The notes: generated by a model from the letters alone, not told the origin. A DNA stretch of 18,530 bases from a virus (UHGV-0075052); one strand, 5' to 3'; positions 4,003 to 8,802 are shown, counted from the first letter of the stretch. A program made the numbers and translations.

Positions 4003-4196
4003 TTCTTCCCACTCCGCCACATCGCATTCAGATATTTGTTTTGATTCACTGAAGGAAAAGAATTTCTCTTAAGCAATTCCTCTCTCGATGGCATTGGCTT
4101 TACGCGTTGGCGAATAATCATTTCTGCCGGAAGAATGCCGGGATTGTATGCAAGTCCTCTCATAGTAAATTCCTCAGTCATTACTGATAGCGCCAT
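3999..4196 (-). CDS. Small hypothetical protein (start uncertain)
   Basis: Maximal ORF 65 aa; candidate ATGs at 4196, 4181 and 4163, of which only 4163 has a GAGGAA SD. Ends with ATGA coupling to the next gene. Confidence 0.4.
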
Positions 4197-4470
4197 AGCG
4201 TGAGCGGTAATTACGCAGGCGCGGGTCGATATATTCAGGGAATTTGTCTATTGTCGCTTTTCGCAACGGTCGCATTGCTGTTTCGTTTGTTCGGTCCTTC
4301 TCATCTTTTAACGCGAGTTGTATATCGCGTCGGTACATCCGTTCTGCTTTTGTTTCTGGTGGCAGATCAATAAACGTGTCGAAAATGTTTTTGATATTTT
4401 CCAGCACCTCCGCCTTGGAGCTACCGGAGCAGTTGTGCGGGTCATCCGCACCATACAGAGGCGCTGGCAT
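4174..4470 (-). CDS. Hypothetical phage protein (98 aa)
   Basis: ORF in the operon frame with a weak AAGG SD; no family recognised. Confidence 0.55.
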
Positions 4471-4493: not shown

Positions 4494-5081
4494 TCAGAAA
4501 GGAGGGTAATCGTTCTGGCTGTAACCATAATCATCTGCATGATTCTGGCTTACGTTTTTAGAGCGATTGTCTTTATCTTTGAGGCTGGCAACCATGTTGG
4601 CGATAGTTTCTGGTTGCTTGCCTTCCGCCTTTTCTTTAAGGGTTTGACCCGTTTTTGCAATAAACGGGATGCGTATTTCCATCTGGTAGCTGTCTGCGCC
4701 AGTCTTTTTGTTTGTGGTTAATACTTTCTGGAGCACTAACCCGATTTTCTTTCCATGAAATTCAGGAGCAACAAATTTACTGGCGGAAACCATATGTTGC
4801 GTTAATTGTCCAATCCCGGCACACCCCATCATGGCGTGGACGACATTTGCGCCAAATTTATTTTCCGTTCCGTCATTTTTCTGAACACAGACGCTAAGAT
4901 ATTGGATTTTACGTCCGTCGTCGGATTCGCCAGAAAACTCAATAAATTTGGCTCCTTTTTCTGATTGCTTTAGTTCTGCTTCAGTAATGGTAATGATATG
5001 AGCGCCAGTTTCGTTAATAAAACCACCTTGCCCTGCGGTCAGTGCTGCTTCTTCGTTATAAGTAAAAATCACGTTGCTCAT
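4494..5081 (-). CDS. SSB-like ssDNA-binding accessory protein (DUF669-like) partnered with Sak4
   Basis: 195 aa; ATGA-coupled to the upstream Sak4 gene; C-terminal acidic/aromatic tail ...DDYGYSQNDYPPF resembles the SSB C-terminal DDDIPF interaction tail. Confidence 0.7.
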   Translation of the reverse strand: MSNVIFTYNEEAALTAGQGGFINETGAHIITITEAELKQSEKGAKFIEFSGESDDGRKIQYLSVCVQKNDGTENKFGANVVHAMMGCAGIGQLTQHMVSASKFVAPEFHGKKIGLVLQKVLTTNKKTGADSYQMEIRIPFIAKTGQTLKEKAEGKQPETIANMVASLKDKDNRSKNVSQNHADDYGYSQNDYPPF

Positions 5082-5758
5082 GCGGCGTTTTCCTTAATTT
5101 GATGAACATTATTGATGCCGTAGTAATCACAAACAGTGGCATCGACGAAAGAGAGATCGTTATCAATCTCATTGGAGTCAAACATTCCCATTGGGGATTT
5201 AACAGTGTCTGCACCGTTGTTTTTTGTGGTGAAAAAGAACTGGTCATCACGGGTAAGGGTGCGAAGAACTATAGTAAACATGCCTTCAACAGTAATTTTC
5301 TCGTCCAGCATTTTGCCGATAGTTTTCATTTTCACGCGCCCCATAGGGGTTTCTTCGGTGTGTGCAAGAAAATAGACTCTCAGGTCATCAGGTGCATCCT
5401 GTGCAGCCTTAATCACCTCCCATGCGTGGCGGCCTATCTCAGTAAATTTATCAAACGATTTTTCTTCTGAGCGGCGCATAAACTCATTGCTCATCACATA
5501 CTGGAAGTCATCAACAATAACGATTCTTTTCCCGTATTCGTGAGCACGCTTAATTACGGCAACTATTACGTCCCATTTGTCAGTGGTAACTACGGTTCCT
5601 TTTTTTGCTCTGACATCCCATGCAAGCCAGTCTTTTGATTTAAATGGTAGCGGCTTGCCTATTGGTTTTATAAGTATTGCTTCCTCTGGATTGATATTTC
5701 TCATGCTGGTTGATTTTCCGGTGCCAGATTCACCGAGTATTAATGTCGCAGTTCCCAT
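5078..5758 (-). CDS. sak4: Sak4-like RecA-fold ATPase (phage ssDNA annealing/recombination protein)
   Basis: 226 aa; N-terminal Walker A LILGESGTGKST; Walker B-like hydrophobic stretch ending in DD (RIVIVDDF); GAGG SD 7 nt upstream; sits where lambda carries bet/exo. Confidence 0.8.
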   Translation of the reverse strand: MGTATLILGESGTGKSTSMRNINPEEAILIKPIGKPLPFKSKDWLAWDVRAKKGTVVTTDKWDVIVAVIKRAHEYGKRIVIVDDFQYVMSNEFMRRSEEKSFDKFTEIGRHAWEVIKAAQDAPDDLRVYFLAHTEETPMGRVKMKTIGKMLDEKITVEGMFTIVLRTLTRDDQFFFTTKNNGADTVKSPMGMFDSNEIDNDLSFVDATVCDYYGINNVHQIKENAA

Positions 5759-5955: not shown

Positions 5956-6065
5956 TTTGACCTCCATTTTCTGTAGGCTTCGATGGCCTCACGAAACATC
6001 TTTTCATCGCCAATAAAAGTGGCGATAGTGAATTTAGTCTGGATAGCCATAAGTGTTTTATCCAT
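5952..6065 (-). CDS. kil: Kil-like host-killing / FtsZ-inhibitor small protein (37 aa)
   Basis: MDKTLMAIQTKFTIATFIGDEKMFREAIEAYRKWRSK resembles lambda Kil as recalled from memory; located immediately downstream of cIII as in lambda. Confidence 0.6.
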   Translation of the reverse strand: MDKTLMAIQTKFTIATFIGDEKMFREAIEAYRKWRSK

Positions 6066-6198
6066 TTTTGGGAACTCCTGGCTGATTAAGTACGTCGATG
6101 AGTCGTTTCCATCCGTCACGTAATTTGCGGGTGATTCGTTCAAGTAAAGATTCGGAAGGGCAGCCAGCAACAGGCCACCCTGCAATGGCATATTGCAT
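6058..6198 (-). CDS. cIII: cIII (FtsH/HflB inhibitor that stabilises cII)
   Basis: 46 aa, MQYAIAGWPVAGCPSESLLERITRKLRDGWKRLIDVLNQPGVPKNG, near-identical to the lambda cIII N-terminal region as recalled; AAGGAG SD 6 nt upstream. Confidence 0.85.
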   Translation of the reverse strand: MQYAIAGWPVAGCPSESLLERITRKLRDGWKRLIDVLNQPGVPKNG

Positions 6199-6260
6199 GG
6201 TGTGCTCCTTATTTATACATAACGAAAACGCCTCAAGTGAAGCGTTATTGGTATGCATAT

Positions 6261-6284: not shown

Positions 6285-6346
6285 AAAGAAGATTTCCAAT
6301 AATCAGAACAAGTCGGCTCCTGTTTAGTTACGAGCGACATTGCTCC

Positions 6347-6374
6347 GTGTATTCACTCGTTGGAATGAATACAC
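6347..6374. repeat. Perfect 9-bp inverted repeat (GTGTATTCA / TGAATACAC) with 10-nt spacer
   Basis: Read directly from sequence; lies 15 nt downstream of the stop of the 156-aa gene; no U-tract follows on the minus strand. Confidence 0.5.
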
Positions 6375-6388
6375 AGTGCTTATTCGTA

Positions 6389-6859
6389 CTAATAAAACAC
6401 CCAGTTTTCTGTTTCTTGGTTGTGTCCAAAGTTATATTCAATATCTGGTGTTGATGTATCAATATTCTTCATCCCATCAACAAGAGTTGATACAACAGCC
6501 AAATCTTGTTTGATTCTCATCAAATGGTATTTCTTTCGGCGCAATAAACTTTCAATGGCAAGTTTCTTCGTCGGGAATGCAAAAGATCTTTCTGCATTTT
6601 TTGCTACTTTCTTAATTGCATATCTATTTCTCCTTTGTTTCCATTCCCGTAACCACTGATTTGGTGCTGGTTTAAAATCAACAATCCAATGCGCAGGAAC
6701 CAACCATGCATAATGCTCTGTCTGATGAAAAGCTATATATTGAAGTGCGAATATTTTGATTCCATCTTCTTCAACTGTCGCTTGGAATCTCCAGAAAACA
6801 GGCATTCCATCATGTTCAGTTTCTGATTCAGGAAAAGGTACGCTCCATGATTTTGTCAT
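6389..6859 (-). CDS. Hypothetical accessory protein (156 aa), AT-rich
   Basis: Clean ORF with a GAGGTGAG SD; visibly more AT-rich than neighbouring core phage genes; no recognisable motif. Confidence 0.7.
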   Translation of the reverse strand: MTKSWSVPFPESETEHDGMPVFWRFQATVEEDGIKIFALQYIAFHQTEHYAWLVPAHWIVDFKPAPNQWLREWKQRRNRYAIKKVAKNAERSFAFPTKKLAIESLLRRKKYHLMRIKQDLAVVSTLVDGMKNIDTSTPDIEYNFGHNQETENWVFY

Positions 6860-6913
6860 ATCTCACCTCAAATAAGTGGTTTGCTGCGAAAGTAAATACG
6901 CTTAAGTTACCTG

Positions 6914-7051
6914 TTATTTATCCCACCAAGTTCCGTATCTATCTATCCAGTTACACCAATCATCGACACTCCATTTTGTTGTGTCGCATTTTGGCAACTG
7001 GCATGAATATCTACCTTCTTTGTAAAGTCGGCGTTTGACTTTCTTGAGCAT
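6914..7051 (-). CDS. Small Cys/Trp-rich putative zinc-binding protein (45 aa), absent from the ORF track
   Basis: Hand translation MLKKVKRRLYKEGRYSCQLPKCDTTKWSVDDWCNWIDRYGTWWDK; ATG 7051..7049 with a GAGGTGAG SD; three Cys. Confidence 0.4.
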   Translation of the reverse strand: MLKKVKRRLYKEGRYSCQLPKCDTTKWSVDDWCNWIDRYGTWWDK

Positions 7052-7170
7052 GGCTCACCTCAATCGTAATAAGTTGGAATTGATTTTCCGCGTTGCTTCT
7101 GGCGGCCTGAGCAGGTAACCCTCATTTCACTGCGTGGCTTGCGGTAGTAAATTAGATTTGTTCAGACAAT

Positions 7171-7190
7171 AAAAAACCCACCGAAGTGGG
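7171..7190 (-). terminator. Putative rho-independent terminator (tL1-like) after the N-distal gene
   Basis: Minus-strand hairpin CCCAC-ttcg-GTGGG followed by TTTTTTATTG, immediately 3' of the stop at 7191. Confidence 0.6.
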
Positions 7191-7529
7191 CTATGACCAT
7201 TTTTTATTTGGATTTCGTTGGTGAGCGTGATTAACAACTCTGTGCATTACATCCTCATATTTTTCATCTTCAATTTTTTCGACATCGCGAGGAAATGGTG
7301 TTGCTAATGCTTTGTCAACTTTGTCCATTGGTTCTTCATTAATCTTATATTCAGGACCGTCATCTATAGCATTAAATCCAGGTGTTACACCGTTTTTTAA
7401 TGCATATGCTATCCTTTTTTCCCATCTCGCTATTCTCCTCCTGTCTCGAGATGTAAGACCTCTATCAGATACCTTTCTGTTTTGTCCGCGGTCAGGATTA
7501 ACATAAATAGTCTTTTTCACCATAAGCAT
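7191..7529 (-). CDS. Hypothetical basic protein (about 113 aa) directly downstream of N
   Basis: ORF with ATG candidates at 7529 and 7523 (the track's 7538 start is a TTG); the N stop TGA lies at 7532-7534; Arg/Lys-rich N-terminal half, acidic C-terminal half; AT-rich. Confidence 0.55.
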   Translation of the reverse strand: MLMVKKTIYVNPDRGQNRKVSDRGLTSRDRRRIARWEKRIAYALKNGVTPGFNAIDDGPEYKINEEPMDKVDKALATPFPRDVEKIEDEKYEDVMHRVVNHAHQRNPNKKWS

Positions 7530-7531
7530 AC

Positions 7532-7837
7532 TCAACAAGCACCGTACGGTAGTTTACTGTACAATTTTATTTTTTGGACTGCATGTATTTTGTTTCCTAA
7601 CGGGTTTGAATCTTTGTAATAAATACTTCTATTTTTTCGAACGACTTCTTCTTTCTTCTTGCAGCAAAGGCTTCCTAGTGATGCTGCTTTGTCTGCTCTG
7701 ACGCAACCAGAGAGCTTTAGCGCAATTTTTCGCGCCAGTGCTTCATTACTGCGTCGCTCGGCAATAAGTTCTGCTCTGCGAGCTTTGTAGCGGCTTTTTG
7801 CCGTACCTTTGGATTCTTTCCAGACAATGGTTACCAT
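7532..7837 (-). CDS. N: N-type transcription antitermination protein with phage-21-type arginine-rich motif
   Basis: N-terminal GTAKSRYKARRAELIAERR matches the phi21 N ARM peptide as recalled; AGGAG SD before ATG 7837..7835; nutL lies in the leader. Confidence 0.8.
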   Translation of the reverse strand: MVTIVWKESKGTAKSRYKARRAELIAERRSNEALARKIALKLSGCVRADKAASLGSLCCKKKEEVVRKNRSIYYKDSNPLGNKIHAVQKIKLYSKLPYGAC

Positions 7838-7947
7838 GATGGTCTCCTTTAAGTGGCTTTGGCGCATGACGCGTCGAGGTGCTTATCTTCTCGATCGCTG
7901 TCTTGCAGCTGCAATTCGCGCCATCCCCAAAACCACTCAAGTTCTGG

Positions 7948-8131: not shown

Positions 8132-8151
8132 AAAAAAGGGGCGAAAGCCCC
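8132..8151 (-). terminator. Rho-independent terminator of the cI transcript
   Basis: Minus-strand hairpin GGGGC-tttc-GCCCC followed by TTTTTTATTTCCC, immediately 3' of the cI stop. Confidence 0.6.
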
Positions 8152-8802
8152 TTAAGGAAGGTTTGCTAGCTTGGCATCAACGACAACGCCAATGATTTTA
8201 CAGTTCCCATTGATTTCAATCATTGGGTATTGTGGATTGAGTGGTTTCAGGAATTTTCTACCGGCATCAATAACTAACTTTTTGAATGTCGCCTCGTTTT
8301 CCCCTTCAAGTTTGGCGACTACCAGCTTTCCATTACGTGGTTCGACTTCTGGGTCGACGAGAATAATCATCCCCTCAGGAATACTCAGTCCTGCCGGGGC
8401 AGTCATTGAATCGCCTTTAACGTCGAGCCAAAAAGAGTCTTCAGAACAATCTACCGTTGTGTCGTACCAGTTATCTATTGCACGCCTATGATATGGCTCT
8501 ACAGCTTCCATCCAACATCCTGCGCTTACCCAACTAATTAGAGGATACGAACCTCTTGGATCATGCCTGCTGTGATAGGCAATGTTTGAAAGACTATCCT
8601 CTCCTTTCAACAGGTAATCAGGGGAGCACTGCAAAGCCTTGGCTAAGGCCAATAGGTTTTCGCCATTGGGCTCAGTTTCAGATCGCTCCCATTGGGAAAT
8701 AGCAACATTAGACACGCCAACCATCTTGCCAAGGGCAGCCTGCCTAATCTTGAGTTCTTTTCTGCGAGCGCGAATACGCTCACCCATCAGTTGTGTATTC
8801 AT
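8152..8802 (-). CDS. cI: cI-type prophage repressor (HTH_XRE plus LexA-like S24 peptidase domain)
   Basis: 216 aa; N-terminal HTH (LKIRQAALGKMVGVSNVAISQWERS); C-terminal autocleavage domain with GDSM and a downstream Lys (VVAKLEGE); divergent from cro. Confidence 0.9.
   Translation of the reverse strand: MNTQLMGERIRARRKELKIRQAALGKMVGVSNVAISQWERSETEPNGENLLALAKALQCSPDYLLKGEDSLSNIAYHSRHDPRGSYPLISWVSAGCWMEAVEPYHRRAIDNWYDTTVDCSEDSFWLDVKGDSMTAPAGLSIPEGMIILVDPEVEPRNGKLVVAKLEGENEATFKKLVIDAGRKFLKPLNPQYPMIEINGNCKIIGVVVDAKLANLP

Follow-up and report, generated by a model that had tools for sequence, protein, structure and literature searches.

Gene content of the N-cIII interval

The DNA analysed here, referred to as the window, is an 18,530-nucleotide stretch of viral sequence (UHGV-0075052) that belongs to a P22/HK97-like lambdoid prophage of E. 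coli, and positions are counted from its first letter. Two small open reading frames (ORFs) lie on the minus strand between the antiterminator gene N and cIII, one encoding 156 amino acids (aa; 6389-6859) and the other 45 aa (6914-7051). Their boundaries are exactly those given in a preliminary description of this DNA, which had proposed that the two genes form a novel accessory module, possibly for defence or exclusion. The location between N and cIII likewise holds, except that the gene directly upstream of the terminator at 7192-7171 is nun, with N lying farther upstream. From the repressor gene towards cIII, the features are:

8152-8802, minus strand: repressor, P22 c2-like, LexA family (Peptidase_S24 and HTH)
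8113-8034, minus strand: pL-like promoter sites (consensus scan)
7532-7867, minus strand: antiterminator N, phage-21-type N terminus (PHROG 271, E 1.2e-31)
7191-7538, minus strand: nun, HK022-type transcription-termination/exclusion factor (PDB 6ALG chain N; PHROG 5632)
7171-7192, minus strand: intrinsic terminator-like hairpin, AGCCCACTTCGGTGGGTT then TTTTATTG, directly after the nun stop codon (terminator scan)
7060-7150, minus strand: relic A, a non-coding 3' remnant of a 21-type N gene, IYYRKPRSEMRVTCSGRQKQRGKSIPTYYD then stop (translation, DNA alignment)
7054-7063, minus strand: TTGAGGTGAG, copy 1, Shine-Dalgarno sequence (SD) of the 45-aa ORF plus relic N stop codon
6914-7051, minus strand: 45-aa ORF (Pfam PF17583, DUF5484; Sf6 gene 36 protein)
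6868-6900, minus strand: relic B, a second N 3'-end remnant, RIYFRSKPLI then stop (translation; DNA homology firm for 6868-6887)
6862-6871, minus strand: TTGAGGTGAG, copy 2, SD of the 156-aa ORF plus relic N stop codon
6389-6859, minus strand: 156-aa ORF (PHROG 1636; HK97 Gp45 / 933W L0079)
6345-6376, minus strand: 9-bp hairpin, GTGTATTCA / TGAATACAC, without a T-run (read from the sequence; absent from the terminator-scan output)
6284-6267 and 6246-6227, minus strand: tandem pair of terminator-like hairpins, separating the 156-aa gene from cIII (terminator scan)
6153-6211, minus strand: cIII RNA thermometer, overlapping the cIII start (Rfam RF01804, 88.5 bits)
6058-6198, minus strand: cIII, left edge of the variable slot (Pfam Lambda_CIII, E 9.4e-30)

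The N gene probably starts at about 7837 (MVTIVWKE), and the NCBI pipeline PGAP calls a product of 101 aa in identical prophages. Its match to the Pfam N_peptide model is weak; PHROG 271 is described as 'anti-termination protein N-like', and the gene is named N in mEpX1. At the other edge of the interval, the position of the RNA thermometer places the start codon of cIII at 6198 and not at the upstream ATG of a 66-aa ORF. Beyond cIII follow kil, a small 'recombinase' ORF, an AAA_24 (Sak4-like) ATPase, a 195-aa protein, Abc2 and an Ea22-like gene, and the integrase gene is found on the opposite (plus) strand at the far left end of the window. The recombination module (4494-5758, minus strand) is of neither the Red nor the Erf type. 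Its ATPase has 226 aa and overlaps the gene for the 195-aa protein, which has no Pfam match, and the anti-RecBCD protein Abc2 follows at 4174-4470; the same pair of ATPase and 195-aa protein also adjoins a homologue of the 156-aa gene in a Cronobacter prophage (locus L029).

The contents of the slot between N and cIII differ among related phages, where ral, ea10/DUF2528, a P22 gp17-type sie gene, an Nmad5-family gene or nun may be found, in agreement with the view that the two genes are accessory and lie outside the core. The low G+C content noted earlier is also real, at 0.376 for 6389-7051 compared with 0.468 for the window, a value as low being reached in only 0.3% of 663-bp windows. The AT-rich tract is, however, wider than the two genes and extends over approximately 6300-7650, including nun (G+C 0.371).

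The nun gene upstream of the two ORFs

The product of the gene at 7191-7538 is ~98% identical over 109 residues to Nun of HK022 (PDB 6ALG chain N, E 9e-71) and falls into PHROG 5632 (E 9e-71). It is an inserted gene and the one recognisable exclusion factor in the interval. The full-length nun follows a complete phage-21-type N gene, with an overlap of 7 nt at the end of the latter, and the same pair of N and nun is present in mEpX1 and mEp235. In HK022, nun occupies the place of N. RefSeq labels the Nun protein of the window (WP_000930322.1) merely as 'hypothetical protein'. With regard to expression of nun in the lysogen, the stop codon of the repressor gene is adjoined by a strong terminator-like hairpin (AAGGGGCTTTCGCCCCTT then a T-run; 8136-8153, minus strand), so that maintenance transcripts should stop before pL.

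The 156-aa protein belongs to a wide phage family

End to end (residues 1-156 of 156), the 156-aa protein matches PHROG 1636 (E 2.3e-111), and it is 98.1% identical to Gp45 of HK97 over the full 156 residues and 98.7% identical to L0079 of 933W. The gene is present in many Shiga-toxin phage records and in 598 of 5426 complete E. coli genomes (~11%). Orthologues of the same length with 55-85% identity are encoded in Pectobacterium, Brenneria, Cronobacter, Rosenbergiella and metagenomes; 40 positions are invariant, and this conservation indicates that the protein is clearly under selection. Searches of Pfam, NCBIfam, PADLOC and PDB sequences gave nothing above noise, the sole PADLOC match being Cas1_II at noise level (E 0.024, 11.9 bits), and a literature search with L0079, HK97 gp45 and the protein accessions did not find a functional study.

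More distant relatives were found by a profile search of 1.84 billion representative sequences, which returned 87 clusters (E < 1e-3) of proteins of 125-170 aa with ~20-25% identity. Among the 75 aligned family members, none carries a Pfam domain, and the PHROGs that they match (1636, 13631, 25384 and 28215) are all of unknown function. Only G33, T47, K87 and A101 are nearly invariant among the 75 members, so that a catalytic site is not apparent. As a family, these proteins are basic, with a median pI of 9.0 and 77% of members above 8.5; a basic pI, however, argues only weakly for binding of nucleic acids. No membrane segment is present in the 156-aa protein, the highest 19-residue Kyte-Doolittle mean being 0.56.

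Structure prediction depended on these distant relatives: an AlphaFold2 model made from a shallow alignment of 21 enterobacterial sequences was poor (pLDDT 59.8) and was discarded, while the alignment of 75 sequences gave a confident model (pLDDT 96, pTM 0.83). The predicted fold consists of a long beta-hairpin and a third strand (residues 19-55), two short helices followed by a fourth strand (83-86), and a 33-residue helix (98-130), after which the C-terminal tail is predicted to fold back against the core. Conserved basic positions (24, 75-76, 83-84, 87, 92, 98 and 108-109) are located in strand 1, in strand 4 and its flanks, and in the long helix. Using the confident model, a structure search of the PDB gave no significant match to a solved structure, and a search of BFVD matched only uncharacterised phage proteins. 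The relatives in fold include proteins of N4-like, Vi1-like, Cellulophaga and rhizobial phages. Virulent phages of other groups, such as phiEa2809, phiAxp-3 and RG-2014, have relatives in fold.

The genomic settings of the distant homologues are heterogeneous, and neither a partner nor a pathway stands out from them. Some homologues immediately precede xis/int, and others are found with DNA methylases in an early region, behind the terminase genes, leading an operon that includes a ParB-like gene, or singly, on the opposite strand, within a group of tail genes. They have no conserved partner gene beside them, and the small ORFs upstream are unrelated. In several phages the homologue immediately follows N or opens an operon. 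Within one metagenomic phage group (L031, 4001-5298; L023, 6001-6935; L018, 6001-6450), the family member stands alone or leads an operon on the opposite strand and adjoins tail and head genes, once with a ParB/KorB-like gene directly after it. A homologue of DNA polymerase III theta (HolE-like) lies immediately upstream of the family gene in a Brenneria prophage (L008, 3684-3935).

The 45-aa protein is shared with T4-like phages

The 45-aa protein scores 46.7 bits with Pfam DUF5484 (PF17583), above the cut-off of 27, with residues 5-42 aligned to positions 3-41 of the 43 in the model, and it also matches PHROG 1871 (E 1.4e-22). Its sequence, present on ~1000 contigs, is identical to that of 'gene 36 protein [Shigella phage Sf6]'. 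The preliminary description had found that neither protein of the pair resembled anything recognisable; both are in fact nearly identical to annotated ORFs of classical phages, and the profile searches that it had called for led to known families, PHROG 1636 and DUF5484, and not to a novel system.

Homologues of the 45-aa protein were detected by tblastn in 1037 phage records at ~45-54% identity, mostly in T4-like phages of Escherichia, Klebsiella, Shigella, Yersinia and Enterobacter. In T4-like phages the homologue is gene 55.4, located between nrdH and gene 55. An alignment that included RB32 55.4, an Erwinia phiEt88 ORF and ORFs of Klebsiella and Enterobacter phages has 14 invariant positions (M1, K6, R7, K11, G13, Y15, P20, T24, W27, W32, I36, D37, G40 and W42), and the 45-aa ORF fits both this conserved pattern and the family length of ~43-48 aa. 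Its cysteines are a different matter, as the T4-type and Klebsiella-phage homologues have L/I in place of C17, G/R in place of C22 and I in place of C33. The cysteine-rich character that had been pointed out is therefore not a trait of the family, and since the three cysteines are not conserved, a reading of the protein as a zinc finger was rejected. No PADLOC match and no membrane segment (highest 19-residue Kyte-Doolittle mean -0.74) were found for the 45-aa protein. A literature search with DUF5484 and gp55.4 returned no functional study, the sole mention of gp55.4 being as a listed transcript.

In all four RefSeq E. coli loci inspected (L005, L019 and L020 among them), the ORF is intact and 98-100% conserved, yet left unannotated by PGAP, and the phiEt88 homologue (L013, 2495-2641) is likewise unannotated, lying beneath a probably spurious CDS on the opposite strand.

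The two genes assort independently

If the two genes formed a cassette, they would be expected together. Adjacency was counted with a probe across the junction of the two genes, scored in E. coli genomes when covered to at least 80%. By this measure, only 42 E. coli genomes have the two genes side by side, compared with 598 that carry the 156-aa gene and 137 (full length) to 204 that carry the 45-aa segment. Phages with a single one of the genes exist for both, as seen in the order of genes that follows N:

HK97: Gp45, terminator, cIII
933W: L0079, ea10/ssb, cIII
GPEC172: Nun, 156-aa gene, cIII (the small ORF would not fit)
PA28: Nun-like fragment, 156-aa gene, gp17-type sie gene
AW1.7: 45-aa gene, Nmad5-family gene
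WAT: Nun, 45-aa gene, ral, DUF2528
mEpX1: Nun, 45-aa gene, other genes

HK97, 933W and GPEC172 thus have the 156-aa gene only, and AW1.7, WAT and mEpX1 the 45-aa gene only. Compared across related prophages, the genes come and go separately and not as one unit, so a two-gene cassette is not upheld. The anatomy of the interval, which we regard with high confidence, the family assignments of both proteins and their independent assortment are observed directly in these data.

The repeated 10-mer marks the ends of relic N genes

The 10-mer CTCACCTCAA on the plus strand (TTGAGGTGAG on the minus strand) occurs exactly twice, at 6862-6871 and 7054-7063, where 0.04 occurrences would be expected by chance. 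Both copies had been recognised before, at coordinates that were off by one base, and had been read as a translation-initiation context shared by a cassette. Each copy is instead the junction of a stop codon and an SD at the 3' end of a relic N gene. The TGA that ends relic A falls within the SD of the 45-aa ORF, and the peptide translated from the relic matches the C-terminus of the intact N of AW1.7, which ends in YSKPRSEMGVTCSGRQKQRGKSIPAYYD and a stop. The TGA stop of relic B lies in the same way inside the SD of the 156-aa ORF. Within the junction, GAGGTGA matches the anti-SD over 7 nt, in support of translation of the ORFs behind it. Counting the real end of N at ~7532 together with 7060-7150 and 6868-6900, three N-terminus-like segments are packed into ~700 bp.

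In 933W, VTCVGRQKMKLGSKPLI and a stop are found at the equivalent place upstream of L0079, after the stop codon of the phage's own, unrelated N; this peptide resembles the C-terminus of phage 21 N. The boundaries of matches that contain only the 156-aa gene and of those that contain only the 45-aa gene overlap at 6857-6887, a segment of ~30 bp, and H127 has a single 32-bp match in that segment, beneath its annotated N gene. In CurroJimenez_Bas106 (Bas106; L003, 3634-3798, minus strand), the stop codon of the 45-aa ORF is lost and the frame continues into the relic N 3' end, resulting in a 55-aa fusion of the 45-aa ORF and relic B that ends in RIYFRSKPLI. Mosaic C-termini of N proteins have been described in a published comparison of gene 24 of P22 and L (PMC8022706). 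On the strength of the relics, the repeat looks like a recombination joint that was inherited twice, and not like a regulatory element of a cassette.

Terminators and promoters around the two genes

The terminators and hairpins described as flanking the genes are present on the minus strand, both in the terminator scan and on direct reading. The 9-bp hairpin at 6345-6376 lies just past the stop codon of the 156-aa ORF. HK97 has the same two tandem hairpins after gp45, the first of them recorded as 'terminator, putative' in the HK97 entry. Where N is intact, no terminator separates N from gp45 (HK97) or N from the 45-aa ORF (AW1.7). Bracketing by terminators is consequently no property of a cassette, as the upstream terminator arrives with nun and is absent where N is intact. 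A crude consensus scan for sigma-70 promoters, which weak or non-sigma-70 promoters could escape, found no promoter-like site on the minus strand from pL (8113-8034) to cIII.

Proposed stacking of early genes behind N

With high confidence for rejecting a two-gene system, we conclude that the genes are independent, catalogued phage accessory genes, probably stacked behind N by recombination. In the explanation that we consider somewhat probable, the interval would be made up of independent modules stacked in the leftward early (pL) operon, in the order N; nun with its terminator; a relic N 3' end; the 45-aa gene; a second relic; the 156-aa gene; terminators; and cIII. Each of the genes would once have stood directly behind a phage-21-type N whose TGA stop codon lay within the gene's own strong SD (TTGAGGTGAG), and the conserved end of N may have served as a homologous joint at which genes are swapped or stacked. 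Such a joint would account for both the repeated 10-mer and the cassette-like look of the interval.

As for expression, both genes would be delayed-early: silent in the lysogen and transcribed only once N antiterminates pL upon infection or induction, with N letting RNA polymerase pass the nun terminator to reach them. We infer this timing from the lack of a detectable promoter and from the position of the genes behind terminators. Action by binding is suggested for both proteins since they are small and soluble and have no conserved catalytic residues. The 156-aa protein, with its basic fold of a beta-sheet and a long helix, would most likely bind nucleic acid or an acidic host protein during early lytic growth. 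It could be speculated that its role is in host takeover or counter-defence, analogous in position to Ral of lambda, given that relatives occur in virulent phages, that the gene often comes first after N or leads an operon, and that the protein has a basic surface and no catalytic residues. The more than 1000 records of T4-like virulent phages with DUF5484 homologues are consistent with a role in the lytic cycle. The proposal that both proteins are made early under N and bind a host target or a nucleic acid draws on position, distribution and composition, and is made with low confidence. Similarly tentative is the possibility that the 156-aa family, phage-wide and with a fold that is new among solved structures, represents a new kind of early counter-defence or host-takeover factor that binds nucleic acid or a conserved host protein, its repeated placement first after N or in front of early operons being a reflection of this role, and that DUF5484 is a second, independent factor of the same class in T4-like and lambdoid phages.

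Among other readings, the 156-aa protein may be a DNA-binding regulator of the phage's own development, as an accessory to integration and excision, replication or the lysis-lysogeny decision, and may not target the host at all; we consider this rather unlikely. A further reading, which we find quite improbable, is that the 45-aa protein is a transcription-linked factor coupled to N, translated in concert with it and modulating antitermination or RNA polymerase. Where N is intact, its stop lies inside the SD of the 45-aa ORF, 8 nt before the ATG, the 3' end of N travels with the ORF, and the T4-type gene 55.4 belongs to a cluster just upstream of gene 55, which encodes the late sigma factor. 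However, nun and a terminator separate the ORF from N in the window, WAT and mEpX1, leaving only a relic end of N beside it, and T4-like phages have no N; moreover, the order of genes around T4 gene 55 is no evidence of function, and searches revealed no homology to known proteins that bind RNA polymerase or Nus factors. Finally, a module expressed in the lysogen for defence or superinfection exclusion, possibly toxin/antitoxin-like, that protects the host is very improbable, for although the N-cIII slot carries exclusion genes elsewhere (sieB and ral in lambda, the gp17-type sie gene in PA28), the interval is low in G+C and variably present, and nun, a genuine exclusion gene, adjoins, the two genes are seldom adjacent, have no promoter-like site in the consensus scan and a terminator upstream, encode proteins with neither a PADLOC match beyond noise nor a membrane segment, and belong to families shared with virulent phages, for which there is no lysogen to protect.

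Comparison with related systems

In HK97 and 933W, Gp45 and L0079 are encoded in the pL operon as well, downstream of N and before the same hairpin pair and cIII, but there the gene follows N directly, whereas nun, a terminator and the 45-aa gene intervene in the window. The T4-type 55.4 proteins have the pattern KR.L[FY]K.G.Y..P..T..W....W..ID..G.W in common with the 45-aa protein, at ~50% identity. Unlike the lambdoid version, the T4-type and Klebsiella-phage members are missing the three cysteines, and the T4-type gene resides in an early/middle cluster from nrd to gene 55 and not in a temperate pL operon.

Ral of lambda occupies the same pL slot, and in WAT the place that the 156-aa gene takes in the window is taken by ral, behind the 45-aa ORF. 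The gene is small, belongs to the N-dependent early accessory genes and has a soluble product, as would be true of the genes of the window if they too depend on N, yet it has no sequence similarity to either ORF and the analogy is one of position only. HK022 Nun is encoded immediately upstream of the two ORFs and supplies the terminator that had been taken as the upstream bracket of a cassette, but it is a separate module whose sequence is unrelated to either ORF. The combination of N and nun occurs with or without the two ORFs, as in mEp235, mEpX1 and WAT.

Significance

Both ORFs were already in databases without a function, as HK97 Gp45 / 933W L0079 and as Sf6 gp36 / DUF5484 / T4-type 55.4, and cannot count as a novel system. 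What is new is the wider gp45 family with its confident orphan fold, the connection of the lambdoid ORF to T4-type 55.4, and the nested architecture of N relics. The candidate novel defence system does not stand, and effort on a two-gene hypothesis is thereby spared.

The gp45 / L0079 family is much wider than annotated and has a confident model without a solved relative. Its gene, found in ~11% of the complete E. coli genomes and in many Shiga-toxin phages, is a reasonable target for a phenotype screen. DUF5484 is a 45-aa protein that bridges T4-like virulent phages and lambdoid prophages. The nested 3' relics of N, finally, illustrate cleanly, at the level of sequence, how lambdoid phages come to stack accessory genes on a conserved gene-end joint.
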